Shown: positions 820-57,889 of the stretch, piece by piece
Layout: each line of letters opens with the position of its first letter
Numbering within the stretch: the stretch's first letter is position 1
Assembly: GCA_021498125.1 (NCBI GenBank)
Contig: JAIZWL010000001.1
Coordinates: 1,104,099-1,168,098, forward strand
From: Candidatus Thorarchaeota archaeon
GTDB lineage: Archaea; Asgardarchaeota; Thorarchaeia; Thorarchaeales; Thorarchaeaceae
Reading direction: 5' to 3'
DNA length: 64,000 bases
Position numbers and translations under genes: made by a program
The notes under the pieces: model-generated
What the model was told of the DNA's origin: nothing
Database searches by the model: none
Seen by the model: the letters and a program-made list of their open reading frames with translations, nothing else

Positions 820-1804
820 GATTGGTGCACATCCGAGCAGAGAGATCGATATCCGTGACCTGAAGGTCCGCTTTGGAAAGTTCTGGGCACTCAAGGGAGT
901 CTCGTTCTATGCCAATAAACGAGAATTTCTTGGTATCATTGGAGCCTCTGGTGCAGGTAAGACGACAGCTCTGCGAGTTCTCACCGGGCAGATCCGGCCC
1001 ACCTCCGGTCAGGCGTTTGTCGGCGGCCACGATGTCACCAAGAACCGCAAGCTCATCAGTCTACTTGTTGGATACGTGCCGCAGATCGAGCATCTGAGCC
1101 TCTATTATGATTTCAGTGCATTACAGAATGCACAGTTCTTTGGGCGCTGTTTTGGCATGCGCCCGCGGGAGATTGAGGAACGGGCCAGAAACATACTCAC
1201 GATTCTCGGTTTTGATGAGGACCTCATGACAAAACGAGTATCCCGTCTCTCTGGTGGTGAGCGGAAGCGAGTGTCCATCTCTCTTGGTCTCATTCACGAT
1301 CCTGTTCTTCTCTTGCTTGATGAACCCACGACGGGTCTTGATGCGCATCTCCGCCACGAGACCCTCAATTATCTAAAGGAATTGAATTTCGAACTTGGTA
1401 CTACAATGGTCATTATCAGTCACGACCTTGAGATCGTAGACTATTGTTCTCGTGTTGTCCTTCTTGAACATGGACTGGTTTCGCAATTCGGAACCCCCCA
1501 AGACCTCATCTCATCTCTTCCGGGCCATGGTGAGAGCCTGCGTCTGGTGCTTCCGACTTTTAATCCCACTGTGGAAGAGCGTATCCATCAGATTCCTGGG
1601 GTAAAATACGTGGCGACGGCCGGACGAAATACGGTCAAACTTTTCTTGGATAATCCGAAGGAGAAGATGCTTCCGGTAATTCGGCACTTGAATAGTATCA
1701 AAATGCCATTTGAAGAGCTGTCCTTAGTTGAAGCGGACTTTTTTGATTACTTCCAAGTTAAACCTTGGAAAGAAGATTCACAATCTGGAGTGGAATTGAC
1801 ATGA
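812..1804 (+). CDS. ABC-2-type transporter ATP-binding protein
   Basis: Walker A GASGAGKTT, signature LSGGERKRV, Walker B LLLLDEPTTGLD and H-loop ISHD are present. A roughly 100-aa C-terminal extension is typical of DrrA/GldA-type ABC-2 ATPases. The ORF opens at TTG 785. GTG 809/812 lie 4-7 nt after GGGAGGG (799-805), so the start is taken there. Confidence 0.9.
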   Translation: MSEIGAHPSREIDIRDLKVRFGKFWALKGVSFYANKREFLGIIGASGAGKTTALRVLTGQIRPTSGQAFVGGHDVTKNRKLISLLVGYVPQIEHLSLYYDFSALQNAQFFGRCFGMRPREIEERARNILTILGFDEDLMTKRVSRLSGGERKRVSISLGLIHDPVLLLLDEPTTGLDAHLRHETLNYLKELNFELGTTMVIISHDLEIVDYCSRVVLLEHGLVSQFGTPQDLISSLPGHGESLRLVLPTFNPTVEERIHQIPGVKYVATAGRNTVKLFLDNPKEKMLPVIRHLNSIKMPFEELSLVEADFFDYFQVKPWKEDSQSGVELT

Positions 1805-4800
1805 AGCCATACCATATCTTTCTTGCAATCCTGACGATCTCTGTCATCATTATAGTCAACTCTCCCATGGGTGGACCCGCCGCTCTGGGCATCACCCCAA
1901 TTGGTCGGCCATCGGCGCTTGCAGGTCTCTCCCCCTATGAGACCGCATTGGTATGGTCAAATACTACTGGATCTCAGGTCGTTGATCTTGCTACTGGAAA
2001 TTTCGATGGTGACTCTAATACAGAGGTTGCCATAATTTTACAGAATGGTTCACTTGTGTTATTTGATGAACGCGGAAACCGGAATGGAACCCTATCATTG
2101 GGGGCCGCTCCTAATGCATTATCTGTGGTCAACATTGATGGGACCGGATCAATGGAACTGGTCATCGGCACATCAAAGGGACTTCTTGTTGTGGGCGCCG
2201 ACCTCTCGGTTCTGATGAATGTCACACTTCCCAATGAGGTCTGGTCAGTTGCGAGTGGCGATCTGGACGGTACTGGAGATCTGGAGGTCATCGCGGGCTG
2301 TGACGACTCCCTTGTCTACGCCTATGGTCTAAATGGCACACAGGTCTGGAACTATACTTCTAACGCGGCTGTTCGAAGAATTATGGTGGCAGATGCTGAT
2401 GCGGACGGTGTAGATGAGGTCCTTGGCGCATCGCAGTTCAGGCAGCTATTCCTTCTTGATACTAATGGGTCTGCGATCTTCTCTCAGAGCTACACCTTTT
2501 CCATTTCCGCAATTGTTTTTGCTGATCTGGTTGGCGATACCCAGTTAGAGGTAGTCACTGGTGACTCGAATGGGACCGTGGCTGCACGATACAATAACGG
2601 TACTCTATTTGATACAGTATACACCTCGGATGCTGTCACTGCTCTGGTCTCAGGTCAGCTGATGGCCGGAGGCAGTCCTGAGATCATTGTTGGTGCGAGC
2701 GACGGTAGTCTACGGATCTATAACTCTACTCTCGTCCAGCAATGGAATAAGACACTTGGATCTCAGATCGATGTTATTGCACTTGCAGACATTGGAGGGC
2801 TCTCGGATCCTCAGCTTCTTGCTGGTGAGGGCGGCACACTCCATCTCTATAATGCAAGTGGTACTCTTGTGTCCAATACTGATCTTGTTGGTTTTTCAAG
2901 TACCCTGACCACCGGTGACTTGGACTTTAATGGTCTTGATGAGTTTGTAATGGGCACCAATACAGGAGTTGTTCGTGCCTATGGCCGTGACTATGATAAG
3001 GATGGGCTTGCTGACGCACGCGAGACCCTGATTGTGGGTACACTCTGGAATGATGCTGATACTGACAACGACCAACTCAACGATGGTGATGAAGTTCTCA
3101 ACTATAATACAGACCCACTGTCACCCGATTCCGATTCCGATGGTCTGACCGACTTTCAAGAGGTCATCACCTACGGGACCGATCCGAACGATGTCGATAG
3201 TGATAATGATGGGCTCACAGACTATCAGGAGATCTATCTCGGAACTAATCCTAATCGTAGCGATAGTGACAATGATGGTCTGACGGATTACGAGGAGAAT
3301 AACGTAACGCTCACCGATCCTCTGCGTGCGGATTCTGATGATGATGGTACAAATGATGCACAGGACGATAATGATGGTGATGGCCTGACAAACATCCAAG
3401 AGGTTAGGATCACAAAGACGGACCCCAATGATGCAGACAGCGATAGTGATGGCACCTCCGATTATTATGATGATCAGGATGGGGACAACCTTGCGAACTG
3501 GAAGGAGCTCTCCATTGGTACTGACCCACTCGATCCCGATTCTGATGATGATGGTCTCTCGGATGGTGACGAGGTCAAGATATGGAAGACCTCTCCACTC
3601 CAGACTGACACTGATGGTGATCAACTCACTGATTATGAGGAAGTCCATACAGTTCATTCCGACCCGACGGTCTCAGATACCGATGATGATGGTCTCAGTG
3701 ACTATGATGAATATGTCACCTATGGGACCTCTCCTATCAATGCGGACACGGACAACGACTCCCTCTCGGATGGTGCAGAGATCAACACCTACCACACGAA
3801 TGCTACCAATCCCGATACAGATAATGACACGATCTCTGATGGCGCAGAGGTTCATACGTGGAAGACCGATCCCAACTCTAATGATACCGATCTTGACACG
3901 CTTCTCGATGCCGAGGAGATATTCATCTATCACACTAATGCCACCCTTACTGATACTGATGGCGATGGTCTTGATGACGGTGCCGAGATCAAGCAATGGC
4001 ATACCAACGCCACTTCTACAGACACGGACATGGACGGCATCTTTGACAAGGACGAGGTTGACCGCTATCCTGTCTTCAATGCCACCAATGCACATACATT
4101 CAATGCCACTGTAAACGACTATGACTGGGACTATGACTCGGACAATCTCACCAATGGTCAAGAGATCTATCTGACCCTGACCGACCCGACAAAAGCAGAC
4201 ACGAACGGAAATGGGAAGACGGATGATCTTGAAGACTCTGACCTTGACGGTCTCACCAATTATCAAGAATTGTATGTGACACATACTGAGCCTCGGAATC
4301 CCGATACAGATGGGGATAAGGTGAAGGATGGGGACGAGGTGAATATTCTGCACACATCCCCACTTGATACCGATTCGGATGATGACTCGCTCTCAGACTA
4401 TGATGAGGACTTTGATGGTGATACACTCTCCAATGGTGTAGAACTCTATGTCACAAAGACCGACCCCAATGATGCGTACTCTCATGGGACCAGCCAGCCT
4501 CGTGATGACAAGTACGATAATGATGCGGATGGATTACCAAACTGGTTTGAGGTTGACCGTACGAACACAGATCCGCTCTATAACGACACAGATGATGATG
4601 GAGTCCTTGATGGTCTCGAAGATCCGGATAATGATAATATGACCAACATTGAAGAGTTCGAGGCTGGGACCTTGCCTCTTGATCCTGACTCTGATAACGA
4701 TGGTCTATCTGACTGGGAAGAGACCACCCTGACCCATACGAATCCACTTGTTCAAGATACTGATGATGATGGAGTCCGTGATGATCAAGACGATCAGGAT

Positions 4801-7800
4801 AATGATGGACTCACCAATCTCCAAGAAGTACGAACATACCACTCGAACGCCACACTCTGGGATACAGATGGTGACATGATCCGTGATGGTCTAGAGGTGG
4901 ATGTTGGTCTAAATGTGACCAACTCCGACACGGATGGTGATGGGCTCTATGATGGATATAACGACCTGAATCATAATGGTCACTGGGATCAGGGAGAACC
5001 GGGCGAGGATCTGGACACAGATGGTGTTGTCGATTCTGGTGAGACCGACCCATCAAAGGCGGACACAGATGGTGATGGTCTCAAAGATGGGGCTGAGCTC
5101 ACTGCTGGAACTGACGCATTGGACGCGGACACAGATGGTGATGGTCTCAAAGATGGGGAAGAGGTCAATGAATACTCTTGTAACCCCTTACTCAATGATA
5201 CCGATGGTGATGGTCTTGATGATTACACAGAGGTCAAGATAACCGAGACCGACCCTACGACAAACATGACCCATGCTGGTGTGTTAGACTACAATTATGA
5301 CTCCGACGGTGATGGCCTGACCAATGGGCAAGAGATTGATGTATACAAGACATCACCTGGAGATATGGACTCTGATGATGATGGTCTGACCGACTACGAT
5401 GAGGTGAAGGTCTATAGTTCTGATCCCAACAAGAATGATACCGACTCTGATGGTCTGACAGATTATGAAGAGGTGCAGTATGGATCCAATGTCACCACAC
5501 AGGATACTGACGGTGACGGCCTCGACGATTATGTGGAGGTAAAGATTCTAGGTACAAATGCAACTCTCTACAGTACGAATGCCAACGGGACCTGTGACTA
5601 TGATCTTGATAATGACGGTGATGGTCTCTCCAACGGTCTGGAGATCTATGGTTATGGCAGCAACGCCACCGATCCGGACTCGGACCATGATGGGCTTGAT
5701 GACTATACCGAGGTCAAGTTGGTCGGTTCCTCCCCCACTGACAAGGATACGGATAATGATGGACTCAGTGACTATGATGAATATACGATCTACCACACTT
5801 CACCCACACGTTCCGACACAGATGCAGATGGTCTGTCCGACGATTACGAGATCTATACATCTCATACATCACCTAACAAGTGGGACACCGACGGTGATCA
5901 ATTGAGCGATGCGGACGAGGTGAATACCTATCATAGTGATCCCAACTCCCCTGATACAGACAATGATGGGATTCCTGATAAGACCGAGATCGATCTCGGC
6001 ACTGACCTCAACTCGAATGACACTGACGGCGATGGTCTGAGCGATTATGCCGAGTGGAAGACCTATGGGACGGATCCCACGAAGGCCGATGAGGACAATG
6101 ATGGCCTCAATGATAAAGAGGAGATCGAACATGGGACGGATCCCACGAATCCTGATTCGGACTTTGATTCGCTGAATGATGGTGATGAGGTCAATATCTA
6201 TCACACCTCCCCAACGGACGAAGACACAGACCACGATAATATTGCAGATAATGACGAGGTCTGGAACAGTCATACTGATCCCAATTCTGCCGACTCCGAT
6301 GGTGATGGGATCACTGATGACAAAGATGACGAGGATGCAGATGGGATAACCAACTTCCTTGAGATCTATCTCTACGAGACCAATTGTACTCTATTTGATA
6401 CGGATTCCGACTATCTCGGTGATGGCTACGAGATCTTCACAAGTCATACCGATCCTCGTTCGGCTGACACAGATGATGATGGACTTGGGGACTGGGAAGA
6501 GATCTTCCGGTATCACAGTAATCCGAACAATCGTGATTCCGATGGTGATGGTCTCGAAGATGCTGAAGAGGCGCTCACGTATCACACTCTGCTCAACAAT
6601 ACTGACACTGATGGTGACACACTCAGTGATTATGATGAGATCAAGGTCTTTGAGACCGACCCTCTCCAATACGACACGGACGGTGACACGCTCTCCGATG
6701 GTGCAGAGCTCAATGTATACAATACCGACCCATTAGAGAAAGACACCGATTCTGATCTGCTCCAAGATAACCAAGAGATACTGTTAGGGACGAACCCCCG
6801 CTCTTCAGACACTGACAATGATGGCCTCACCGACTATCAGGAGAACAACTTGACGTATACAGATCCCTTGCTCTACAGTACTCAGGGTAACGATGTGTCC
6901 GATGCTGACTGGGATATGGACAACGACACGCTCACCAACCTTCAGGAGATATCGCAGACAAAGACCAATCCTCGGCTTAACGATACAGACGGCGATGGTG
7001 TTATTGATGGTGCGGATGATGAAGATCGTGATCTCCTAACCAACTATCAGGAGTGCGTTCTGACCAAGACCAACCCTCGCAACAAGGACACAGATGGTGA
7101 TGGCACTTCCGACTACAACGATGACGAAGACGATGACGGTCTCAGTAATGGAAATGAGGTCTGGATCTATCACAGTGATCCGTTGGCCAAAGATACTGAC
7201 GCGGACGGTCTAGACGATTACGATGAGGTCACTACCTATAACACAGACATTCTCGATCCGGATACTGACAACGACCTTCTCAGCGATGGTGATGAGGTCA
7301 ACAAGTATGGATCCTCACCCCTGTTGAACGATACTGATGGCGATCTGTTGTCCGATTACGAAGAGGTCATGTTCACAGACACGGATCCTACTACCAATAT
7401 GACTCATGCTGGTGTATTGGACTCGGAATGGGATACGGATAATGATGGCCTCACAAACATTGCCGAGTTGCGTGTCTATGGTACCGATCCGGGAGACCCC
7501 GACTCGGATAATGACGATCTTATCGACGGTGCCGAGATCACCGCAGGTTCTGATCCGTTGCAGCCTGACACGGACGGCGACTCGTTATTGGACGGGGTTG
7601 AGGTCAACATATATCACACGTCACCTCTTCTCAATGATACAGATGGTGATGGTCTCTCTGACTCGGATGAGGTCCTCACGTATGGCACATCTCCTCTCAA
7701 GGTTGATACGGATGGGGACTGGCTCTCCGATGCTGAGGAGATCCTTATCTACCATACCGATCCTCTGAACCCTGATGATGATGGAGATGGTGTGACTGAT

Positions 7801-8535
7801 TATGATGAGGTCATCACTCATGGTACCAATCCTCAACTCCCAGACACCGACTCCGACAGACTGACTGACTACTTTGAGATTATGACCTCCCTGACTGACC
7901 CCTTGAATAATGATACCGATGGTGATGGTCTCTCCGATGGAGTTGAATACCTGACATACCATACAGATCCCCTCAAAGGGGATACTGATGGTGATACGCT
8001 CTCAGATTACTATGAGATCAGACATGGTCTCAATCCGTTGTCGGTCGATACGGATGGGGACTCGATTCCTGATAATGTGGACTTTGATCCGCATATTCAT
8101 GTGGGATACTATCTTGGCGGCGCGATCTTTGGGATTGTTGCACTTGTAGTAGTTGTGAAGACTCTCCGCAAGCGTGTGACCGAAAAGACTTACGTGACTG
8201 AGGCCGAGCCTGCCAGCGAGGGTCTGGCACCAGGGATGGATATTGCTGTAGAATACAAGATTCATGGCGGCAAGGTCATCTTCGGGGTCGTTGTACGTAA
8301 TGGCTCTACCGAGACCATGCAGAATGTCCATGTCGTTCTTGGAATCCCCGATCTCACGGATGCTATCAAGAGCGAGCTGATGGGGACGATCGAACCTGGC
8401 TCGTTGTCCGTCACAGAGGTGGAATTTGAGTTGGAACCCGGTGCTAAAGGTGAACTTGTGGGAATGGTGGAGTATGATACGCTAGAGGGTGAACATAGAG
8501 TGGTAAACCTGCGTCCAGTTGAGATCATAGCGTAG
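1801..8535 (+). CDS. Giant surface protein: signal anchor, 8 FG-GAP/VCBS-like propeller repeats, about 70 thrombospondin type-3 (DxDxDGxxDxxE) Ca-binding repeats, TM helix, cytoplasmic Ig-like tail
   Basis: ATG 1801 overlaps the ATPase stop (ATGA) and is followed at once by a hydrophobic anchor (MKPYHIFLAILTISVIIIVNS). FG-GAP-like units such as 'ASGDLDGTGDLEVIAGCDDSLVYAYG' span about nt 1980-2990. Units of the form 'TDPxxxDSDxDGLxDxxE' run from about 2990 to 8090. A TM helix (YLGGAIFGIVALVVVVKTL) lies at about 8107-8165, followed by a roughly 120-aa beta-rich tail. The ORF track extends to ATG 1765. Confidence 0.9.
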   Translation: MKPYHIFLAILTISVIIIVNSPMGGPAALGITPIGRPSALAGLSPYETALVWSNTTGSQVVDLATGNFDGDSNTEVAIILQNGSLVLFDERGNRNGTLSLGAAPNALSVVNIDGTGSMELVIGTSKGLLVVGADLSVLMNVTLPNEVWSVASGDLDGTGDLEVIAGCDDSLVYAYGLNGTQVWNYTSNAAVRRIMVADADADGVDEVLGASQFRQLFLLDTNGSAIFSQSYTFSISAIVFADLVGDTQLEVVTGDSNGTVAARYNNGTLFDTVYTSDAVTALVSGQLMAGGSPEIIVGASDGSLRIYNSTLVQQWNKTLGSQIDVIALADIGGLSDPQLLAGEGGTLHLYNASGTLVSNTDLVGFSSTLTTGDLDFNGLDEFVMGTNTGVVRAYGRDYDKDGLADARETLIVGTLWNDADTDNDQLNDGDEVLNYNTDPLSPDSDSDGLTDFQEVITYGTDPNDVDSDNDGLTDYQEIYLGTNPNRSDSDNDGLTDYEENNVTLTDPLRADSDDDGTNDAQDDNDGDGLTNIQEVRITKTDPNDADSDSDGTSDYYDDQDGDNLANWKELSIGTDPLDPDSDDDGLSDGDEVKIWKTSPLQTDTDGDQLTDYEEVHTVHSDPTVSDTDDDGLSDYDEYVTYGTSPINADTDNDSLSDGAEINTYHTNATNPDTDNDTISDGAEVHTWKTDPNSNDTDLDTLLDAEEIFIYHTNATLTDTDGDGLDDGAEIKQWHTNATSTDTDMDGIFDKDEVDRYPVFNATNAHTFNATVNDYDWDYDSDNLTNGQEIYLTLTDPTKADTNGNGKTDDLEDSDLDGLTNYQELYVTHTEPRNPDTDGDKVKDGDEVNILHTSPLDTDSDDDSLSDYDEDFDGDTLSNGVELYVTKTDPNDAYSHGTSQPRDDKYDNDADGLPNWFEVDRTNTDPLYNDTDDDGVLDGLEDPDNDNMTNIEEFEAGTLPLDPDSDNDGLSDWEETTLTHTNPLVQDTDDDGVRDDQDDQDNDGLTNLQEVRTYHSNATLWDTDGDMIRDGLEVDVGLNVTNSDTDGDGLYDGYNDLNHNGHWDQGEPGEDLDTDGVVDSGETDPSKADTDGDGLKDGAELTAGTDALDADTDGDGLKDGEEVNEYSCNPLLNDTDGDGLDDYTEVKITETDPTTNMTHAGVLDYNYDSDGDGLTNGQEIDVYKTSPGDMDSDDDGLTDYDEVKVYSSDPNKNDTDSDGLTDYEEVQYGSNVTTQDTDGDGLDDYVEVKILGTNATLYSTNANGTCDYDLDNDGDGLSNGLEIYGYGSNATDPDSDHDGLDDYTEVKLVGSSPTDKDTDNDGLSDYDEYTIYHTSPTRSDTDADGLSDDYEIYTSHTSPNKWDTDGDQLSDADEVNTYHSDPNSPDTDNDGIPDKTEIDLGTDLNSNDTDGDGLSDYAEWKTYGTDPTKADEDNDGLNDKEEIEHGTDPTNPDSDFDSLNDGDEVNIYHTSPTDEDTDHDNIADNDEVWNSHTDPNSADSDGDGITDDKDDEDADGITNFLEIYLYETNCTLFDTDSDYLGDGYEIFTSHTDPRSADTDDDGLGDWEEIFRYHSNPNNRDSDGDGLEDAEEALTYHTLLNNTDTDGDTLSDYDEIKVFETDPLQYDTDGDTLSDGAELNVYNTDPLEKDTDSDLLQDNQEILLGTNPRSSDTDNDGLTDYQENNLTYTDPLLYSTQGNDVSDADWDMDNDTLTNLQEISQTKTNPRLNDTDGDGVIDGADDEDRDLLTNYQECVLTKTNPRNKDTDGDGTSDYNDDEDDDGLSNGNEVWIYHSDPLAKDTDADGLDDYDEVTTYNTDILDPDTDNDLLSDGDEVNKYGSSPLLNDTDGDLLSDYEEVMFTDTDPTTNMTHAGVLDSEWDTDNDGLTNIAELRVYGTDPGDPDSDNDDLIDGAEITAGSDPLQPDTDGDSLLDGVEVNIYHTSPLLNDTDGDGLSDSDEVLTYGTSPLKVDTDGDWLSDAEEILIYHTDPLNPDDDGDGVTDYDEVITHGTNPQLPDTDSDRLTDYFEIMTSLTDPLNNDTDGDGLSDGVEYLTYHTDPLKGDTDGDTLSDYYEIRHGLNPLSVDTDGDSIPDNVDFDPHIHVGYYLGGAIFGIVALVVVVKTLRKRVTEKTYVTEAEPASEGLAPGMDIAVEYKIHGGKVIFGVVVRNGSTETMQNVHVVLGIPDLTDAIKSELMGTIEPGSLSVTEVEFELEPGAKGELVGMVEYDTLEGEHRVVNLRPVEIIA

Positions 8536-8608
8536 TTGCTGCTACCCCGCCAGCATCTTCTACGCTATGCCTTCCATCTCCCTTTGTAAATGTCATGCCT
8601 GATCATGG

Positions 8609-11600
8609 GTCTCAACACGACTACGTTCTTCTGAAACTTTGGTCTGGGTCTTGGATAATTTAGAGAACTATTACGTTTCAACACGACTACGTTCTTCTGA
8701 AACCGGAGTTAGAAAGCACTTTCTCGATGATATCACCGAAGTTTCAACACGACTACGTTCTTCTGAAACTTTATCGGACTCGAGTCCGGCGACTATATTT
8801 TGACCTGGTTTCAACACGACTACGTTCTTCTGAAACGTCAACTGTTTCTAACATTAGACGCGCATTCACGAAGAGTTTCAACACGACTACGTTCTTCTGA
8901 AACTGCTGGCGTTGCTGTTGTCGTGATACTGCTGCTTATGGTTTCAACACGACTACGTTCTTCTGAAACACCTGCCACCCAGTCAAGCCCATAACGTGCT
9001 AACTGTGGTTTCAACACGACTACGTTCTTCTGAAACTTCAGTGACGATGAAGTAGAGCTAAGCATAGAGAAAGCGTTTCAACACGACTACGTTCTTCTGA
9101 AACTTTTTTGAAGCATCAAATCTTATCCTCCAGTCGAGTTTCAACACGACTACGTTCTTCTGAAACTCTCAAGGTCAATCATCATAAAGCGAGTGTATTC
9201 ATGTTTCAACACGACTACGTTCTTCTGAAACATTTTCATGTAAGGCGGATCATAAGTAGCGACTGGTTCGTTTCAACACGACTACGTTCTTCTGAAACTA
9301 GCTTCTCGTACTGATTTTCAAACTCGGTTCTGGTGTTTCAACACGACTACGTTCTTCTGAAACGTTATTGCAGCCGTAGATGGTAGAGTTAATACTTATA
9401 AGTTTCAACACGACTACGTTCTTCTGAAACAGACGTACCCATGAAATTTCAAGTGCGCCACCAGTTGGTTTCAACACGACTACGTTCTTCTGAAACCTTT
9501 CCGAGTGGGTAAAGTACATGACGCCCCTTCAAGGTTTCAACACGACTACGTTCTTCTGAAACGGGAAATACTGCTTGTCCACTGGGCGGACATAGATCCG
9601 GTTTCAACACGACTACGTTCTTCTGAAACTCATAGATTCTTTCCTCTTCGAAAGTTTCACTCCATGGTTTCAACACGACTACGTTCTTCTGAAACGCGGT
9701 ACCTGTAGCTTGGAATCCGACAGCAGTTTTTGAGTTTCAACACGACTACGTTCTTCTGAAACTCTGTTTGCCACGTGGGTTGACATTTCACTGTTGTTTA
9801 GTTTCAACACGACTACGTTCTTCTGAAACGTTAGCGTGGATGGGCTACGTAATCCGAGAGTGCTGTTTCAACACGACTACGTTCTTCTGAAACGCACTAG
9901 TGAAGGACCTATAGGTCCTTCTTCAGGAGAGTTTCAACACGACTACGTTCTTCTGAAACTCGGCTATCATGTCATAGGTGGTCGAGGAATAGGCGGTTTC
10001 AACACGACTACGTTCTTCTGAAACGGACCCAACAATATCTGGTACATCTCTGAGCATAGGAGGTTTCAACACGACTACGTTCTTCTGAAACATGCCTGTC
10101 AGATTGAAGAGAGTTTCCCCACCATCCGGTTTCAACACGACTACGTTCTTCTGAAACCCTTTTGCATTAGATATAGATGGCGAATTTGAGCAAGTTTCAA
10201 CACGACTACGTTCTTCTGAAACGCAGATGAAGAAGTCTGATCCGCGTTTAGGCTGGAAGGGGTTTCAACACGACTACGTTCTTCTGAAACTATCGCGGGG
10301 CGGCAGAGAATCGGGAATGACCGGACCGAGTTTCAACACGACTACGTTCTTCTGAAACAAGCCGATGTTGAGGAGATAGTGGCAGAGTTCAGTGGGTTTC
10401 AACACGACTACGTTCTTCTGAAACTGACAGATTATGGGATAGGTGAAAAGAATGACTGATCGTTTCAACACGACTACGTTCTTCTGAAACACGCTCTATG
10501 AGCAGGTCCTCCTCGTAGCGCAGACCGTGTTTCAACACGACTACGTTCTTCTGAAACGTTCCACAGGGGCATGACATATGCCTCTGGTGTGGATGTTTCA
10601 ACACGACTACGTTCTTCTGAAACCACATGATTCTGATATCTTCTACGATGAAGTATATGATGGTTTCAACACGACTACGTTCTTCTGAAACGCGATTGCC
10701 ATTCAGTACGGTGATGATGCTTTCAAGTTGTTTCAACACGACTACGTTCTTCTGAAACGAACTGTGGGACTGCAACATTGGTAAGAGTTGCGGTAAGTTT
10801 CAACACGACTACGTTCTTCTGAAACTCGATGTTGAAGATGTGATATAAATATACCAAAAGCCGTTTCAACACGACTACGTTCTTCTGAAACATCTTGTCG
10901 AGAGTCGGCAGGATAAGAAGAGATTGATGTTTCAACACGACTACGTTCTTCTGAAACATATTCGAACATCCACAGATGCGTGGGTGTCGTTTGTGGTTTC
11001 AACACGACTACGTTCTTCTGAAACCGTCTGATCTTGATGTAGTCTTCTCTGATCTCTGGCAAGTTTCAACACGACTACGTTCTTCTGAAACTAGAACAAT
11101 CCATCCAAGCCAAAGACTTGCTAGTTTCAACACGACTACGTTCTTCTGAAACCAGTACGGGTCGATACTTCAGATATTTTGACAGTCTTCAGTTTCAACA
11201 CGACTACGTTCTTCTGAAACAAACGATAAGATCTCTGTATGAAGTTTCACGACTAGTTTATATGATAGTTTCAACACGACTACGTTCTTCTGAAACAATG
11301 TACGAGGCTTTGTACCAATCACGCAGCCAGTTAGTTTCAACACGACTACGTTCTTCTGAAACGCTTTTGAAACTAGCAAATTTCATAGGCATTACCTTCA
11401 GTTTCAACACGACTACGTTCTTCTGAAACCTATCATTGGGGGAAAGTTCTCATGTTCCCTGTTTCAACACGACTACGTTCTTCTGAAACGGATCTCATTG
11501 ATGGAAAGATCCCTTCGAACTACTAGTTTCAACACGACTACGTTCTTCTGAAACGATAGAGCAACAGCGCGCTGAGATGGAACATAATATCGTTTCAACA

Positions 11601-13182
11601 CGACTACGTTCTTCTGAAACGTTTCTTTGTACTTTGGAGGACGGGCGCCCCGTGTCGTTTCAACACGACTACGTTCTTCTGAAACGTAGCTAGGAAATCA
11701 GAGCGCACATAGTCGTAGACGCGTTTCAACACGACTACGTTCTTCTGAAACCCTATACGTTATTTTATTCTCCCGGGAGAAGGAGATTGTTTCAACACGA
11801 CTACGTTCTTCTGAAACGTCATCGGGATTGCGACCTATTTCTTGTGGCCCGGCGGTTTCAACACGACTACGTTCTTCTGAAACTTTGATACTTGCAGTGA
11901 CTCGGAACTTGCTACCTATTGGTTTCAACACGACTACGTTCTTCTGAAACGCAAGCCAGTCTATGCATATAGGCGTTCAGGTGATGGGTGTTTCAACACG
12001 ACTACGTTCTTCTGAAACCGCTGTTGACATGATAGTTTCAGCCTCTCTATGATATCCTTGTTTCAACACGACTACGTTCTTCTGAAACTGAACACAAAAC
12101 TATCAAAAACCGAAATCCTGAAACTGTTTCAACACGACTACGTTCTTCTGAAACTGATTCTGTGATGGTTATGAGACCGTCATCTTCATCATGTTTCAAC
12201 ACGACTACGTTCTTCTGAAACGATCTTGACCGTATTGCACCTCTTGAAATATGAATATGGTTTCAACACGACTACGTTCTTCTGAAACTTCTTCACTGAT
12301 TGGATTTCATTTGCAGTTAGTGATAGTTTCAACACGACTACGTTCTTCTGAAACTCCGCCGATCATCTGCACCAGACCCGAAAACAGACGCGTTTCAACA
12401 CGACTACGTTCTTCTGAAACATGAGGTGTTACAAATGACTGATATTGCACGATTCAGTTTCAACACGACTACGTTCTTCTGAAACTCTCGATCTGTTTTG
12501 AACCACAGATCCGAGATGCGGTAGTTTCAACACGACTACGTTCTTCTGAAACCGGAGAACGTCCTCTTGCTTGGAGAGGCAGGAATAGGGTTTCAACACG
12601 ACTACGTTCTTCTGAAACAGGAAATCATCTTGTCGAGGTCGTTGATGACACATCTTGTTTCAACACGACTACGTTCTTCTGAAACATTCTTAAAGGCGTC
12701 GAGAAGATAAGGGTACCCTAGGGTGATGTGTTTCAACACGACTACGTTCTTCTGAAACGAGCCCTTTTTGATTGAATCTGCACGAGACTATGCGCGAGAG
12801 GTTTCAACACGACTACGTTCTTCTGAAACCGACTCGGACTACGCTTGGTACTACTGGTCATTCTTCAACACGCCTTTTTTTTGTTTCAACACGACTACGT
12901 TCTTCTGAAACGCACACGACTACGTGAACCTTACGACTTGTGCGGTGGACATGTTTCAACACGACTACGTTCTTCTGAAACTTTGGGATTTGGGCTGTGT
13001 TGGCATGATCAGATACTGAGTTTCAACACGACTACGTTCTTCTGAAACGAGTATTGTAGGAACCGATCTCAGTCATGAAACACGAGTTTCAACACGACTA
13101 CGTTCTTCTGAAACCTTGCGAATACTTGGTCCGATGGGGATTATCTCTGATTGGTTTCAACACGACTACGTTCTTCTGAAAC
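8609..13182 (-). CRISPR. CRISPR array with 69 repeats of 29 nt (plus-strand GTTTCAACACGACTACGTTCTTCTGAAAC) and 68 spacers
   Basis: I located every repeat by hand. Most spacers are 36-39 nt, with outliers of 31, 32, 34, 41, 41, 42, 44, 47 and 53 nt. The repeat at 8609 is degenerate (GTCTC...), which suggests the trailer end. A 310-nt non-coding AT-rich region follows 13182. The reverse-complement repeat ends in GTTGAAAC, close to the canonical ATTGAAAC 5'-handle source. Minus-strand transcription is therefore inferred, not proven. Confidence 0.97.
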
Positions 13183-13493
13183 TCTTCGTATAATACACGA
13201 AAAACAGGGGAAAAAGCGCTCATAAGTCTTTTCTGTGGAGAGTGTTTGCCGGACTGGCAGTAGTGCACGATCCTTATAAAAGCCGTGCACGCTGGGATGG
13301 TGGTGTAAGAGGTGGCGAGTCAAGAGATGCGAATTTCAGGAATTCCGGGTCGAAGGAGATATGATCAAGACCCGATTTGGTCGAAGGCAAGTGTCTATAG
13401 ATAGTCACAGGCAGGAGCGAAGGTGGTGGCACCAGTACAGGTAGTGAGTAGGTGAATTATCCAAACGCAGATCGTTGTGTGTAGGAGCATAGT
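13183..13493 (-). promoter_or_regulatory. Probable CRISPR leader with TATA-like boxes
   Basis: This is a non-coding stretch next to the intact-repeat end of the array. On the minus strand, TTTTATAA lies at about 13270-13277 and TATTATA at about 13189-13195, just upstream of the first repeat. The right-hand part may also hold the promoter and SD of the TPR gene (AGGAG at 13483-13487). Confidence 0.4.
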
Positions 13494-14852
13494 ATGGTCA
13501 AAAGGAAACAGCAATGGGTCGCGGACGGTCACAAACGTTCACGCTCCCCAAGATTCATATGTCGGTTTCTTCTCTACACTACGGGGACATGTGTGATGGA
13601 GGCCGAAACACTACTAACTACTGTCAGCGAAAAGCTGGAACGCATTGGGGTGGAGGAAGAGATCACTATAGATGATATTCGATCAGTAGCAGTATTTTCT
13701 CCGGTACGACGAGAGCTGGCCGATCTCGAGACCGAGCTGCATCAGGCTCTTGAAGCGATTAAGCATGACGAGCGATTGCCTCGATTGCTCTTTCGCCTTG
13801 CTAATGTTCATCTACGTGAAGGTGATTTTGGTCGAGCTATAGTTCTCTACGAGGTGGTCTTGGGTCTTGATAGCACGATGTTATCAGCATGGATCCACAT
13901 GGGACTCTCCTATCTTCTTGGTGGCGAGCCCAAAGATGCCATCAGTTGTTTTGGAAGTGCTCTCTCTATCGATCCGGAAAATGTGACCGCTTTGGTCTAT
14001 TTGGCCATGGCCTATTTAGAAATGAGCGATTTTGCGAACAGCCGAAAGAACATCGAGCTGGCACTATCTCTTCAACCCACTTATGATCTGGCAATAGTGG
14101 TCAAAGGTGAACTTCTCCGAGCCGAGGGTAACGTACTTGGTGCCATTGCCATGTTCAATCGTGCGCTTGAGCAAAACAGAATGTGCGCGCGTGCTGTGCT
14201 TCGTCTTGGTGAGACCTACATCTCAGAGGGGCAATATCCTGATGCGATAAAGATTCTGACCCCGGGTGTGAAAGCACACCCTGATAATCACCAACTAGTT
14301 GCAGCTCTTGCCGATGCCTATTTTCATAATCATGAATTTCCGGATGCGCTAGAGCTCTATGAGCGCGCTCTCGCTCTCAAGCCCGATGATCCCCATCTCT
14401 GGATTAAGAAGGGCGACGTTCACAGAGCGATGGACAAGTTTCAGCTGGCATCAGATGCCTACCAGAAGGCAATTCATGCAGATCCCGAACTGGTCGAGGG
14501 CTGGTTGCGAAACGCTCAGATTCGTATATTGCTCAATGATTCGGAAGGGGCTCTGGAATATTATAATACTGCTCTTGCACTCAATCCTCATGATGAAGAA
14601 CTGGCGCGACTTCGAGGTCTTCTTCTTCTTGCCATGTCCCGATGGGACGACGCGCTCAAGGATTTTGATACTGCCTTTGCTGCGAATCCGTCTAACCCTG
14701 ATATCCTCTTTTATCGAGCACAGGTATTGGAGCATCTTGGTCGCACTGATGAGGTGCGTCGTACTCTTCAGATCGCTCGTGATTTCTACAAGGCGGCCGG
14801 AAACTCCGTTCGTGCAGCAGAGTGTCTTGCTCGCATGAAACGTCTTGATTGA
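13494..14852 (+). CDS. Tetratricopeptide (TPR) repeat protein
   Basis: About 10 consecutive 34-aa TPR-like units occur (e.g. 'AWIHMGLSYLLGGEPKDAISCFGSALSIDPENV', 'LWIKKGDVHRAMDKFQLASDAYQKAIHADPELV'). AGGAG lies 6 nt upstream of ATG 13494. An alternative start is ATG 13596. Confidence 0.85.
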   Translation: MVKRKQQWVADGHKRSRSPRFICRFLLYTTGTCVMEAETLLTTVSEKLERIGVEEEITIDDIRSVAVFSPVRRELADLETELHQALEAIKHDERLPRLLFRLANVHLREGDFGRAIVLYEVVLGLDSTMLSAWIHMGLSYLLGGEPKDAISCFGSALSIDPENVTALVYLAMAYLEMSDFANSRKNIELALSLQPTYDLAIVVKGELLRAEGNVLGAIAMFNRALEQNRMCARAVLRLGETYISEGQYPDAIKILTPGVKAHPDNHQLVAALADAYFHNHEFPDALELYERALALKPDDPHLWIKKGDVHRAMDKFQLASDAYQKAIHADPELVEGWLRNAQIRILLNDSEGALEYYNTALALNPHDEELARLRGLLLLAMSRWDDALKDFDTAFAANPSNPDILFYRAQVLEHLGRTDEVRRTLQIARDFYKAAGNSVRAAECLARMKRLD

Positions 14853-29280: not shown

Positions 29281-31584
29281 TTGGTACAACCACGCGTGTT
29301 GTTAGAAATTGAGGATGATACGAATACGAGCGCAATTGCCGTAGGTGATGTCACGTCATCCGGACGCCCAGAACTTCTTACCGGAGGTCGGGATGGGGTT
29401 CTGAAATTGTATGATGCGAACCAGAGCGAGATCCATCTCTTAGCACAGGCCGATCTTGGTGGTAGCATTCTTGCGGTTCGGATTGCTGATGCCAATAACG
29501 ATGGTCAAATGGAGATAATCGTTGCACGGAGTCTCTCTCCCGGCGAGAGTCCGGGATCTGGAGAGACACTGCAAGTCTATCGATACTCCCCCTCGGGTAC
29601 CTTCGAACTGTTAGGAGCGTATCCTATTGACAGATTTGTGACTACGCTCACGATCACCGACGTGACCGGCGATAATAAGAACGAGATTCTTGCTGGTGGC
29701 AGTGATTCGACGCTCCGTGTCTTGCAGATGGATCCTGACAACAATCTTACCGAGTTTATCAATCATCAGCTACGAGATATGCCTCTGACAATCGGGACCT
29801 GTGATGTTGTTGGTGACGAACATGAAGAGATCGTCATTGGAAACCGTGACAAGACGCTTCATGTGTTGAAGGTTGTTGATTCTTCAATACAAGAGATCGA
29901 TGTGATCGAGCTGCCCAGTCCAGTCATCTCAATTGCTGCCGGTGACCTTCTTGGTGACCGAAAGATGGAGTTGGGTGTAGTCACACATGATGGCTCGATC
30001 CGTGTCTATAGAAATGAAGAGAATAAATTAGAACTCTTCTCCAAACTTGAAAATGCAAATGCTCTCTCGATCCGGATTGCTGAGTTGAATGCGGATCATA
30101 TGGACGAGATCGTTATTGCCACTTCTGATTACAAGATCGACTATTACAATCTGTATATGGCTGAATTGAAAAAGATCGCAACTGTTGAAATTGGTTCAAA
30201 GATCCTCTCGCTTGCGGTTGGAGATGCAGGCGGTGATGACCGACTAGAAGTGCTTGTGGGCATTTCAAATGGTCCTCTCAAGATTGTCGAGGGACTCTAC
30301 CATCTCATTCCACGTTTTCAAGTCAAGCCCAAAGCCGAGTCTGGAACAGGCCTACTTGGAACACTTACCGTACTAAATGTGACCGATCAACCAGTCGCCG
30401 GAGTCACTGGGAAGCTCTACTGGTTCCCGAAAGAGATGATGGAAGTTTCACCTCAGCAGATTCGATTGGACATTGGCCCTCACGAATCGAAGACTATTGA
30501 GATTGATATTCTGCCTCGTGAAGAGGGAACCATTGTCATTCGTCCAATTGTTCTGATGTGGACCGATGAATCGGGAGGTGTCCGACAAGTGACCACTCCT
30601 GAGACCGCGGTCCTTGCTGAGGCTGGTACCGTGACTGCTGCACCAGCTGAAGCACCAGCCGTCACATTGGACGGAGTTGAAGAGTCATCAGCTAGCGATG
30701 AGGCATCCCCTCTCTTCTCTTCTGTCGGTGGAACTGGCTTCAAACCACTTACCGAGGCGGATCGTCAAGAGATTGAGGCACAGGCCTCAGGTACAACAGA
30801 AGATGCAGTACGACAGGCCGAGCAGCTCTTGGACCAGCTCTTTGGCGATGCGAGTACTGATGCACAGGCTGCCCTTGATGATGTGAAACGGATGATCGAG
30901 GGTGAACCCGCCTCTGCTGAGACCGCAACTGCTACAGAAGCTGAGGTCACAGAGGCACCGCCTCCAGTCTCTAATGAGAGCGCACTTGTCGCGGAGATCC
31001 GAAATCGGCCACCCAAGCCTCCTCCACCCAAGGCCGCCCCCGATGCGTATAGTTTCTTGTTTAAGGTCATGATCATTGGTGAGGGTGCAGTTGGTAAGAC
31101 TACCCTCGTCAATCGTTATGTGACAGGTTCGTTCGAACGCGATTACAAGACCACTATTGGTTCTCAGTTTGCCGTCAAGCTGACTCATATCTTCCCACCC
31201 GAGTCAGAGTATGCTGTTGGTATCAAGATACAGGCCTGGGACGTGGCAGGACAGGCGCGATTTGCAGCAGTACGGAAGATGTACTACAGTGGTGCCGCTG
31301 GTGTGATTTTGGTCTTTGATGTCACTCGTCGTCGTTCGTTCACCGAACTGGAAAAATGGGTCAAAGAGGCTGACGAATCAGTTGGCTCGAGAGTGCCAAT
31401 GGTTGTTGTCGGTAACAAGATCGACCTGCCTGATAGAATGGTCAGCGCAGAAGAGGCCAAGAAATGGGCTGAGGATCAAGGGTTTGTGTATATGGAGAGC
31501 AGTGCCAAGACTGGTGAGGGTGTAGCCGACATGTTTACAGTCCTTGCCGAGTTAATGTGGCGCGAGACCAATAACAGCAAATGA
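29281..31584 (+). CDS. Fusion protein: 7 FG-GAP-like propeller repeats, an Ig/CARDB-like domain, an acidic Ala/Pro-rich linker and a C-terminal Rab-like small GTPase
   Basis: Seven units resemble 'AVGDVTSSGRPELLTGGRDGVLKLYD'. In the GTPase, G1 is GEGAVGKT (31078-31101), switch I is YKTTIGSQF, G3 is WDVAGQARF, G4 is NKIDL and G5 is SAKTG. Rab-family-like YYSGAAG and LVFDVT are present. There is no C-terminal Cys. The ORF-track start is TTG 29281, and the true start is uncertain (GTG 29296 is an alternative). Confidence 0.85.
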   Translation: MVQPRVLLEIEDDTNTSAIAVGDVTSSGRPELLTGGRDGVLKLYDANQSEIHLLAQADLGGSILAVRIADANNDGQMEIIVARSLSPGESPGSGETLQVYRYSPSGTFELLGAYPIDRFVTTLTITDVTGDNKNEILAGGSDSTLRVLQMDPDNNLTEFINHQLRDMPLTIGTCDVVGDEHEEIVIGNRDKTLHVLKVVDSSIQEIDVIELPSPVISIAAGDLLGDRKMELGVVTHDGSIRVYRNEENKLELFSKLENANALSIRIAELNADHMDEIVIATSDYKIDYYNLYMAELKKIATVEIGSKILSLAVGDAGGDDRLEVLVGISNGPLKIVEGLYHLIPRFQVKPKAESGTGLLGTLTVLNVTDQPVAGVTGKLYWFPKEMMEVSPQQIRLDIGPHESKTIEIDILPREEGTIVIRPIVLMWTDESGGVRQVTTPETAVLAEAGTVTAAPAEAPAVTLDGVEESSASDEASPLFSSVGGTGFKPLTEADRQEIEAQASGTTEDAVRQAEQLLDQLFGDASTDAQAALDDVKRMIEGEPASAETATATEAEVTEAPPPVSNESALVAEIRNRPPKPPPPKAAPDAYSFLFKVMIIGEGAVGKTTLVNRYVTGSFERDYKTTIGSQFAVKLTHIFPPESEYAVGIKIQAWDVAGQARFAAVRKMYYSGAAGVILVFDVTRRRSFTELEKWVKEADESVGSRVPMVVVGNKIDLPDRMVSAEEAKKWAEDQGFVYMESSAKTGEGVADMFTVLAELMWRETNNSK

Positions 31585-35296: not shown

Positions 35297-36250
35297 TCAA
35301 ACGGCCTTTTCTAAAGATGCAGCGACCTGTTCGTTCGAATCTATAGATTGATCCCACAATCTATGCCACGTTAGAAGTGCATCCTTGATCAGTCTTGGTG
35401 TCCCTTTGTTGGTTGAGATTAGAACAAGCTCGGGTCTTGCTACATTTGTCATGAACATTGCAATTCGCTCGCTGTTAAGAGTAATGAAACGATAGGTGCT
35501 GTGAGGTCTAGGAAATATCCGTGTTATTATTCTATTATTACGTGTATGTTCTAACATCTCTTTGTGTTTCATTCGGAAAAAATTACTTGCCTCATCAATC
35601 TCACTCAAATCATCGGTCGTTGGAATGAACAATGATTTGACAATTGCGCCCCTTGCCAGAGCTTTTGCCATCTCCAGTTCCAACTTCCCCGTGTTCACGA
35701 GACCTTTATCGAGAATACGTAGAGGCGTTAGTGATCTGATGATGTCCCCTTCTTGGGCAGCTGCAAATATTGCTTGGGACGCGCTCATCTCCACATTTTC
35801 TGCGCCCTCTATAATGGCCGGGTCCTGGGATAGTCCGTTTTCATCTTCCTTATGCGTCATCAGATTGTAAAAGTCAGTCAAGTCTGTTGTTTCAAGTATC
35901 TCAATTTTACGATCTATTGTTTTGATATCGTCTTCAATTGCCTTGATGGCTCTCAATCTTCGGGCATTAAGAGCACGACATATCATCTCATTCGAAGTGA
36001 GGTAGAGATGTGGTCGTCGTATCTTGTCTGTGACCAGATATCCCTCAGCCTCGAGTTCTGATAATGTCTTGTAGACCCAATTTTTAGACACGCGGCTCTT
36101 TTTTCTTACTAACTCGTGGATGGCCCCAATTGTTGGTGCTATGGAAATGGCACCGTCGAAACATTTCACAACACCTAATGTCTGCATCTCTATTGATTCG
36201 GTATCGATGTCCATTGCCGCAATGACTCTCTCCATCTCTTTTTTCCTCAT
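35297..36250 (-). CDS. TrmB-like wHTH regulator, paralogue 1 (wHTH, coiled coil, TrmB_C-like domain)
   Basis: The wHTH is 'IGAIHELVRKKSRVSKNWVYKTLSELEAEGYLVTDKIRRPHLY'. A coiled coil ('RLRAIKAIEDDIKTIDRKIEILE') follows. The C-terminal domain carries the shared 'GDIIR' motif. Confidence 0.7.
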   Translation of the reverse strand: MRKKEMERVIAAMDIDTESIEMQTLGVVKCFDGAISIAPTIGAIHELVRKKSRVSKNWVYKTLSELEAEGYLVTDKIRRPHLYLTSNEMICRALNARRLRAIKAIEDDIKTIDRKIEILETTDLTDFYNLMTHKEDENGLSQDPAIIEGAENVEMSASQAIFAAAQEGDIIRSLTPLRILDKGLVNTGKLELEMAKALARGAIVKSLFIPTTDDLSEIDEASNFFRMKHKEMLEHTRNNRIITRIFPRPHSTYRFITLNSERIAMFMTNVARPELVLISTNKGTPRLIKDALLTWHRLWDQSIDSNEQVAASLEKAV

Positions 36251-36266
36251 AACGTATGTCCCCTCT

Positions 36267-37127
36267 TCAGATCATTGGTGTCGCTTCTGCGAACTCACTA
36301 TCGAAACTAGTTGTCATATCCTCCAGCAATTTGGGGTTTGCTTCGTGAGGAATATACTGTACCATCGGTTCAGGATAGTAACTGATGACCAAGATTCCTA
36401 TGTCACTGTTCTTCAAAAATGCCTCATAGGTCTTCTCGGTTTTTGAGCGTAGACGTATCTCTACGTTATCTGATGTCACCTTCATTAATTTGTAGAGCCT
36501 TCTCGTCACCTCGTAACTGGCGCGATCTATTAATTTTTTATCCGGTCCAAGTACCTTTACGAACGCGCCACGTACTAATAGGCGTTTCAGCATCTTCATT
36601 GTAACGCCGTCTTCTTTAAAGAAGCCTTTCTCTCCCCACCTCACAGACACCCTTATTATATCCCCTTTTCGTATGCGATTGACAAGTTTTTCATGAAGAA
36701 GCTTGATGAGTTGATTTCCACCTCTAGAGAATGATGACGTAGGTGGTTGTTCTTGTCTTAATAAGCGGGTTATGAAAAATGCGGACGTTTTTTGCATATC
36801 TTCTTGTGTAAGTTCTTCGAGAAGTCTTTTTCTGGCCTCTTGTTCGCGTTTTTGGAGTTTAAGTTCATTGAGCTTGTTTGCTTTTAGTCGGGATATCAGT
36901 GCGCGTACATATACATCATTAGTGTAGTACAATGTGCTGTCCGGTTCACGGATGACCTGAATCACGCCCTCCCTCTGTAGATCCAATAATATCTTGTATA
37001 ACGAAGTCCTTCTTCCGGGAGTATCATGGCGGATCCCTACAAAATCTCCTAATTCATTGAACGTGAGTGGGTGGTTGGCCTTTCCAAGCGTGAAGAGAAT
37101 TTTATATCTCTTGGCTTGTGGATTCAC
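36267..37127 (-). CDS. TrmB-like wHTH regulator, paralogue 2
   Basis: The wHTH is 'LTFNELGDFVGIRHDTPGRRTSLYKILLDLQREGVIQVIREPDSTLYY'. A coiled coil follows. The 'GDIIRVSVRWG...RGAFVKVL' segment aligns with paralogues 1 and 3. Confidence 0.7.
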   Translation of the reverse strand: MNPQAKRYKILFTLGKANHPLTFNELGDFVGIRHDTPGRRTSLYKILLDLQREGVIQVIREPDSTLYYTNDVYVRALISRLKANKLNELKLQKREQEARKRLLEELTQEDMQKTSAFFITRLLRQEQPPTSSFSRGGNQLIKLLHEKLVNRIRKGDIIRVSVRWGEKGFFKEDGVTMKMLKRLLVRGAFVKVLGPDKKLIDRASYEVTRRLYKLMKVTSDNVEIRLRSKTEKTYEAFLKNSDIGILVISYYPEPMVQYIPHEANPKLLEDMTTSFDSEFAEATPMI

Positions 37128-37177
37128 ACCTAGTATCTCTGCAAATTCCTTCAGGCTCTCTCTATATGTAGTCGTTC

Positions 37178-57730: not shown

Positions 57731-57889
57731 GATTTTGACCCCGTGATTCACTTGTGTGTTCTTTTGATTTCTTACGGATGAGTTGGTTGCTGGATTTGGC
57801 TTTTTAATGGTACTGTTTGGTTTGTTCTGTTCTGGTTCGCCTTTACGTTTATAGGGGCGCTTAGTCATTGAAGTATTGTGAATTTAGTA

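Follow-up and report, generated by a model that had tools for sequence, protein, structure and literature searches.

Introduction

It is well established that arrays of clustered regularly interspaced short palindromic repeats (CRISPR) can lie far from CRISPR-associated (cas) genes and be shared by several types of effectors, and that type III systems borrow CRISPR RNAs (crRNAs). In Pyrococcus furiosus, studied by the Terns laboratory, seven dispersed arrays are reportedly served by one Cas6, one adaptation module, and three effector complexes, including Cmr (type III-B). The III-B system of Marinomonas mediterranea is said to use I-F arrays. Here, we describe a large remote array in the genome of a Candidatus Thorarchaeota archaeon (assembly GCA_021498125.1). 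It is located at positions 8609-13182 of a stretch of 64,000 nucleotides (nt) of contig JAIZWL010000001.1 (positions 1,104,099 to 1,168,098), which was analysed at its full length and is called the window. The array is probably used at a distance from cas genes, and we lean towards the reading that it is an intact, leader-bearing array served in trans by a Cas6 and by type III effectors, possibly fed by the adaptation module of a type I-D system.

CRISPR-Cas is the commonest defence system in Asgard genomes (27%), where types I and III are the most prevalent ones of class 1 (2026 survey, PMC13700489). Few viruses are known for Thorarchaeota (PMC13700489; bioRxiv 10.1101/2021.07.29.453957), and it is chiefly by spacer matching that viruses of Thorarchaeia have been found so far (bioRxiv 10.1101/2021.07.29.453957). 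The assembly (G000) has 3.11 Mb in 14 contigs and is 98.24% complete, and the window is C1:1104099-1168098 in our contig numbering. Related genomes are designated by G numbers.

Results

Structure of the array and its leader

The initial annotation, made from the sequence alone, described a regular array of 69 repeats of 29 nt and 68 differing spacers between an adhesin gene and a TPR gene, and this description proved correct. The repeat reads GTTTCAACACGACTACGTTCTTCTGAAAC on the plus strand, and 68 of its 69 copies are identical. Repeats follow each other every 60-82 nt, mostly 65-68, and the 68 spacers, 31-53 nt long (mode 37-38), all differ from one another. The reversed repeat pattern, used as a control, gave 0 matches in the whole genome. 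The locus thus shows the regular, near-identical repeats within 23-50 nt and the unique spacers of similar length that define a CRISPR array, and its two ends are marked by a leader and by a degenerate repeat, respectively. Its parts are as follows, and their coordinates are exact for the array.

8609..13182, minus strand (putative crRNA strand): CRISPR array of 69 repeats and 68 spacers; the repeat there reads GTTTCAGAAGAACGTAGTCGTGTTGAAAC
8609..8637, minus strand: trailer-end variant repeat, GTCTCAAC... on the plus strand, with one change; the only mismatched copy of the 69
13183..13300, minus strand: putative leader; can be aligned with those of the other arrays in the genome, and is missing from the same intergenic site in three congeners
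13195..13240, no strand: leader block including CTCATAAGTCTTT (13219-13231); shares about 78% identity with the leaders of the genome's type I-D arrays
13263..13290 region, no strand: TATA-like box TTATAAAA (13274-13281), as read from the sequence; its distance to the first repeat is about 90 nt

The orientation of the array was deduced from both of its ends. Homology links the sequence from 13183 onwards to four other leaders in the genome, each of the genome's arrays has a degenerate repeat at its left end and a related flank at its right end, and the degenerate repeat of a related array in G014 is likewise, in this orientation, at the 3' end. On the minus strand the repeat ends in ...GTTGAAAC (8-nt tag region ...TTGAAAC), which is the (A/G)TTGAAA(C/G) end of the I-B/III-B class of repeats processed by Cas6. 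Together with the positions of the variant repeat (8609) and of the leader (13183 side), this repeat end points to the minus strand as the probable crRNA strand.

The fold of the 29-nt repeat is weak and not significant (z = -1.1), whereas the 37-nt repeat of the I-D arrays has an internal hairpin just before the tag. Both repeats have their ends in common (GTTTCAA... and ...TTCTTCTG..AC). Classification against curated families, which had been proposed as a check, gave Rfam CRISPR-DR41 (RF01350) as the best match, with 30.4 bits (E = 4e-4), which is below the gathering score of 36, so that the repeat is not a member of this family.

The leader has a distinctive block, at its positions 13-58, with the same offset from the first repeat as in the I-D leaders of the genome. 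Local alignments with the latter reach z = 9.6 (C9b) and z = 5.4 (C9a), scores attained by 0 of 300 shuffles. The block does not align with the leaders of the arrays that accompany a type I-B operon of relatives (called alpha below; z < 1), and the leader of a second, I-B-like operon (beta, in G013) has only a 14-nt match to it, at a different offset. The I-D leader of the congener G003 carries CTCATAAACCTTT at the corresponding place, and the block is therefore a feature of I-D leaders that the window array shares.

Upstream of this block, the TATA-like box is framed by a 7-bp inverted repeat (GTGCACG...CGTGCAC). Seven other leaders (G000, G003, G013, G055) have similar boxes at 75-105 nt from the repeat: 75-100 nt in the arrays of this genome and about 95-105 nt in the I-D leaders of G003, G013, and G055. 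Box and inverted repeat are a putative promoter and regulator site of the array. Both the I-D and the III-B loci have genes of Csa3-like CARF-wHTH regulators next to them, and the shared leader block could be a binding site for these proteins or an integration signal. These regulators (216-246 amino acids (aa), CARF and winged helix) are part of paralogous gene pairs beside the I-D (C9:98233-100582) and III-B (C1:861065-863386) loci, each pair also encoding a protein of about 545 aa, which has a winged-helix match in the I-D copy and no Pfam match in the III-B copy. In G008, cas6 is adjoined by homologues of the pair, and in G012 the larger protein has a homologue about 9 kb away from cas6.

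cas genes and other arrays of the genome

No cas gene was found in the 64-kb window, as the initial annotation had claimed, by any of four approaches: 1) Pfam detected no Cas family in the 30 largest open reading frames (ORFs) of the window; 2) PADLOC found no Cas among 10 window ORFs, including six without a Pfam match; 3) whole-genome searches with hidden Markov models (HMMs) of Cas1, Cas2, Cas6, and RAMP proteins gave no match within C1:1104099-1168098; and 4) tblastn with about 70 queries, of which some 40 were Cas proteins from this genome and its relatives and the others the remaining ORFs of the G013 locus, yielded nothing Cas-related in the window. The helicase-like gene at 41208-42623, which had been noted to lack an HD domain, is a generic SF2 helicase (ResIII/Helicase_C). 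Three unannotated ORFs at 35297-38224 were considered as diverged Cas proteins and rejected, as they have no Pfam, PADLOC, or BLAST support. Nor does a matching cas operon lie just outside the window, an arrangement envisaged as one that would make the locus an ordinary one, since 242 kb separate the array from the closest cas locus, which has no array of its own.

The cas genes of the genome are elsewhere. A complete type I-D locus (C9:86776-97838) encodes Cas1, Cas2, Cas4, Cas10d, Csc2, Csc1, Cas3', Cas6, and Csa1. By HMM searches, the sole Cas1 and the sole Cas2 of the genome are on contig 9, and the I-D locus has the one detectable cas1-cas2-cas4 set. The nearest cas locus, 242 kb upstream of the window array (C1:856-870 kb), is a type III-B module that comprises Cmr1-6 and Cas10/Cmr2; the latter has an intact GGDD cyclase motif and, in a simple motif search of the protein, no HD-type match. 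A type III-D-like module at C7:107.6-115.3 kb encodes Csx10, a Csx11-like Cas10 in two ORFs, and a Cmr4-like protein. The two abutting ORFs of this Cas10 (contig 7, ~109989-113014; 543 and 464 aa) are each below the family cut-off, and the split could be natural, a frameshift, or a sequencing error. There are two cas6 genes, one in the I-D locus and a stand-alone one at C7:24363-25136, whose product is full length (135.6 bits for a cut-off of 58.65). The array had been proposed to be either serviced in trans or an orphan. The genome encodes several cas loci and two Cas6, which rules out an orphan at the level of the genome, and therefore the first option is favoured.

A simple array finder run on the whole genome revealed no array near the III-B or III-D-like loci. 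Three other large arrays (C9:1-2456, C9:84215-86626, and C6:128350-128897) share a different, 37-nt repeat, GTTTCAATCCCCTCAATCTGGGATCTTCTTCTGCGAC, which is the only one adjacent to cas genes; no cas locus is beside the 29-nt repeat. Their 30, 31, and 7 spacers are together as many as the 68 of the window array. In the first of these arrays, at the contig edge, spacer 1 equals spacer 21, spacer 2 equals spacer 5, and a 129-nt 'spacer' hides a degenerate repeat; the duplicated spacers could stem from internal duplication or from an assembly artefact. A second copy of the 29-nt family (C5:123257-123522) is decayed: its three repeats have 2-6 mismatches each and irregular spacing, next to a related leader. 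Compared with it, the window array, with 68 of 69 repeats identical and the variant at the trailer end, looks maintained. A third family, of 31 nt (GTTCAAATCAGACTACAAGTAGGGTTGAAAC), is present as 3 repeats and 2 spacers at C5:36292-36458, and the leader there is clearly homologous to that of the type I-B array of the congener G004.

The repeat family and its operons in relatives

The exact repeat (with up to 3 mismatches) is absent from all 86 other genomes of the order, and a degenerate pattern of it matched nothing in our collections of genome contigs and metagenome contigs. With a looser, gapped pattern we identified the family in five relatives (G007, G013, G014, G015, G037) and in four metagenome contigs; it was not found in the viral contigs of IMG/VR. 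In G013 (contig C48), a 30-nt version directly follows a cas2-cas1-cas4-cas3-cas5-cas7-cas8-cas6 operon, the beta operon, which is type I-B-like, its genes having been named by similarity to those of the I-B operon annotated in G004. The 30-nt repeat, GTTTCAACACGACGATCGTTCTTCTGAAAC, is the window repeat with one inserted base and two substitutions, and its spacers have 35-39 nt. The two loci differ in that the array of G013 is beside a full cas operon, whereas the window array has no cas genes within at least 240 kb. The family thus adjoins a type I-B-like cas operon in another genome. The Cas6 type of this operon recurs in G014 and G015, and neither the operon nor a counterpart of its Cas6 was found in this genome. 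The window array is therefore one of a type I-B-class repeat family whose own operon was not found in the assembly.

The stand-alone Cas6 belongs to another group, which we call alpha. It has orthologues with 45-55% identity in G004, G007, G008, G012, G013, G014, and G020, weaker matches (31-39% identity) in four more genomes, and no relative in the genome-contig collection. Its gene heads a type I-B operon in six of these seven closer genomes (G004, G007, G008, G012, G013, G020), and the whole operon, cas6-cas8b-cas7-cas5-cas3-cas4-cas1b-cas2, could be delineated in G004, G008, and G013. It stands alone in G014, as in this genome, and in G012 it is beside a Cmr operon orthologous to the one of this genome. 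Arrays of 31-nt repeats ending in (G/A)TTGAAA(C/G) adjoin alpha cas6 in G004, G007, and G056; the I-B arrays beside its orthologues end in GTTGAAAC, or in ATTGAAAC / GTTGAAAG. No gene of the alpha operon was found in this genome except cas6. The stand-alone cas6 and the array at C5:36292 seem to be left from a type I-B system that was lost; given this 3-repeat array of its own class, we dropped an earlier proposal that the stand-alone Cas6 has no other substrate than the window array.

Insertion and possible dispersal

The genes flanking the array are direct neighbours, about 90-190 nt apart, in the congeners G002, G003, and G004, without any repeat or cas gene between them, and the conserved intergenic sequence picks up again near window position 13535.

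1765..8535, plus strand: left flank, 2256-aa TSP3-repeat surface protein (adhesin), not cas (Pfam, synteny)
13494..14852, plus strand: right flank, TPR protein, not cas; conserved start probably near 13595
8550..13535, no strand: approximate extent of the insertion (short trailer, array, and about 340 nt on the leader side), by comparison with G002, G003, and G004

The comparison therefore shows array and leader as a lineage-specific insertion between genes adjacent in the congeners, without cas genes, and the array was therefore never left behind by a local deletion. Leader-repeat units of the 29-nt family seem to get dispersed, because cas-less copies are found in metagenomes and because the decayed copy on contig 5 (C5:123257-123522) is missing at the matching site of the congeners G002 and G003. 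The metagenome copies, in contigs FWPU01004843.1, FWPU01011771.1, and FWPU01022024.1, are solitary or paired GTTTCAACACGACTA(C/T)GTTCTACTGAAAC sequences, 1-2 bases off the window repeat, and the 5-13 kb around them contain no cas genes. These contigs are from the genome of a relative (67-72% nucleotide identity), and the copy in FWPU01022024.1 is framed by a direct repeat, CTAGATTAGTCC.

Spacers

Spacer length may vary with age. The 37 oldest spacers have 34-39 nt and the 17 newest ones, near the leader, 36-53 nt, resembling the I-D arrays; this trend is only a hint (Spearman p = 0.049), since the cut points were chosen post hoc. Three over-long spacers, at 11221-11267 (47 nt), 12830-12882 (53 nt), and 12912-12952 (41 nt), contain forward repeat fragments (GTTTCA-CGACTA, TTCAACACG, and ACACGACTACGT). 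These fragments suggest imprecise integration or recombination; those of at least 9 nt are found in 2 spacers, for 0.38 expected from shuffles.

The initial annotation had proposed matching all spacers to metagenomic viral contigs of the same environment. Here, targets were sought in the genome itself, in related genomes and phage records, and in IMG/VR for the newest spacer, and none was found. There are no self-targets in the genome, the whole array has no match at E <= 0.05 among 50,697 phage records, nothing convincing was found in 86 related genomes, and a single-spacer scan of the newest spacer gave no exact match in IMG/VR. Matches of 24 nt in G002 and G005 were rejected as protospacers, because they span a repeat-spacer junction and are due to chance.

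The locus is present in a single public sample, with flanks matching at 100%. We found in it at least 8 repeat-flanked spacers outside the assembled array, at a depth of 2-21 for about 10-12 in the flanks, which shows that there are more spacers for the 29-nt repeat in the community. Parts of the array had no coverage in this one DNA sample, an observation that is uninformative given the filters used.

Other genes of the window

A 29-nt-like sequence at 58477-58505 (7 mismatches) was considered as a second array and rejected as probably a chance match, being a single copy inside the gene of a type III restriction-modification methyltransferase (57878-60085, plus strand; PADLOC MTase_III, E = 9e-153). 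An unassigned 893-aa gene adjoining the latter (60191-62872, minus strand) could be its partner. The window encodes a propeller-Rab fusion protein at 29281-31584. Among solved structures, 'Thorarchaeota Rab' (7ezb, E = 3e-43) matches its GTPase domain best, eukaryotic Rabs ranking behind it, which is consistent with the Asgard attribution made initially.

Discussion

How could an array without cas genes be put to use? We regard use in trans as the better-supported account and propose the following course. Transcription would start from the TATA-like box of the leader and proceed on the minus strand towards 8609, and a Cas6 would cut each repeat 8 nt before its 3' end, leaving the crRNA tag GUUGAAAC. 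The stand-alone Cas6 would be a likelier processing enzyme than the I-D Cas6, because the 29-nt repeat resembles the repeats beside the orthologues of the former in its shortness and weak structure, and lacks the I-D hairpin. Cross-processing of this repeat by a non-cognate Cas6 seems plausible. The crRNAs would then be taken up by the Cmr (III-B) complex, perhaps also by the III-D-like one, for the targeting of complementary RNA. New spacers, if still acquired, would come from the I-D Cas1-Cas2-Cas4, recognising the I-D-like leader block. Such uptake is possible and is the weakest link of the proposal, because the 29-nt repeat is 8 nt shorter than the integrase's own. In favour of the account as a whole we count the cas loci of the genome, including two type III loci with no array near them; the maintained repeats; the leader block and repeat ends in common with the I-D arrays; the weak fold of the repeat; its 3' end, found also in arrays beside orthologues of the full-length stand-alone Cas6, one of which is encoded next to a Cmr operon (G012); the additional spacers of the public sample; and, weakly, the spacer lengths.

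A number of observations weigh against this account. Transcription of the array and processing of its crRNAs are unproven, and the searches described above, including that of IMG/VR with the newest spacer, gave no protospacer. The extra spacers of the public sample could belong to a different strain or to an array that was not assembled. The beta Cas6 type is absent from this genome, where the nearest protein is the stand-alone Cas6, with 29% identity; the latter has a small cognate array of its own, and therefore need not be kept for the window array. The I-D integrase normally duplicates a 37-nt repeat, its handling of 29 nt is not established, and the bases adjacent to the repeat differ, being TCTTCG here and CCGG or TGGG in the I-D leaders.

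Part of these observations would fit a silent relic, i.e., the array of a lost I-B-like system such as that of G013 that is no longer processed, used, or extended. The operon accompanying its closest repeat relative (cas6-cas8-cas7-cas5-cas3-cas4-cas1-cas2 in G013:C48) has no counterpart here, the genome has lost the alpha I-B operon too, of which only cas6 and a 3-repeat array were kept, no spacer target was found in the genome, the phage records, or the 86 related genomes, and no RNA run is listed as containing the locus. We nevertheless think a relic unlikely, because the 68 identical repeats differ so clearly from the visibly decayed sister copy on contig 5, the leader keeps both its TATA-like box and the block common to the active-looking I-D arrays, the spacers are as numerous as those of the three I-D arrays together, and the array was inserted at this site without cas genes. 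Alternatively, the matching operon might be outside the assembly, in a gap, an unbinned plasmid, or a mobile element, and we would be seeing an ordinary system incompletely. The 14 contigs, of which two ends are in or beside CRISPR arrays, and the repeat-flanked spacers found outside the assembly at flank-like depths leave some room for this explanation, to which we give little credence: the genome is 98.24% complete, no fragment of such an operon was found at any contig end or elsewhere, and the 29-nt repeat is at no contig end, the array being in the middle of a contig of 1.55 Mb.

The I-D system might also use the array directly, its Cas6 cutting the 29-nt repeat and its effector loading the crRNAs for DNA interference. 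In the transcribed orientation, both repeats do have a 5' CAGAAGAA stretch and a 3' TTGAAAC tag in common, and their leaders are related. Yet the hairpin just before the cut site of the I-D repeat is missing in the 29-nt repeat, the lengths of the two differ by 8 nt, and in relatives the family accompanies a type I-B-like operon, not I-D, which makes this explanation very improbable. Use in trans through a Cas6 and type III effectors thus remains the reading that we prefer. A more elaborate history can be offered only tentatively, as something possible that we would not presume: that of a 'partner-switched' locus, in which a leader-repeat unit of I-B class was seeded or moved, without cas genes, into a conserved intergenic site, was grown to 68 spacers by the I-D Cas1-Cas2-Cas4 in spite of its 8-nt-shorter repeat, with the help of its I-D-like leader block, and at present serves type III effectors only, via a Cas6 left from a third, lost system. 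If true, it would provide natural evidence for adaptation across subtypes and for the founding of new arrays away from cas loci.

Our analysis provides a clean natural case for the exchange of CRISPR parts, in a genome with one adaptation module, two Cas6, three repeat families, and three effector types, whose largest array is the one with its own operon missing. It also shows that an array and its leader can reach a new chromosomal site without cas genes. The mobile elements met by a Thorarchaeota lineage have left a usable record in the 68 spacers and in a similar number of I-D spacers. Since remote arrays and type III systems borrowing crRNAs are already well known, the locus is a useful example of a known general arrangement and not a new principle. 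It is modestly unusual in its missing cognate operon, its I-D-like leader block, and its clean, cas-less insertion.

The comparison with described systems makes this concrete. As in P. furiosus, the array is far from cas genes and has a weakly structured repeat of about 30 nt; there, a single Cas6 leaves an 8-nt 5' tag ending in TTGAAA(G/C), and the crRNAs are shared by effectors including III-B. P. furiosus differs in having one repeat with a cognate Cas6 and Cas1, whereas this genome has three repeat families and lacks the operon type of the window's family. The type III systems that borrow crRNAs resemble the present case in combining array-less type III loci with type I arrays and a Cas6 encoded elsewhere, but there the type I system that owns the arrays is present, whereas here the presumed owner is absent and the I-D system supplies the sole adaptation genes. 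Isolated or orphan arrays in general are, like this one, leader-bearing arrays without adjacent cas genes in genomes with cas loci elsewhere; the window array is set apart from them by its very large size (68 spacers), its near-perfect repeats, and a genome in which we found no cognate Cas6 or Cas1.

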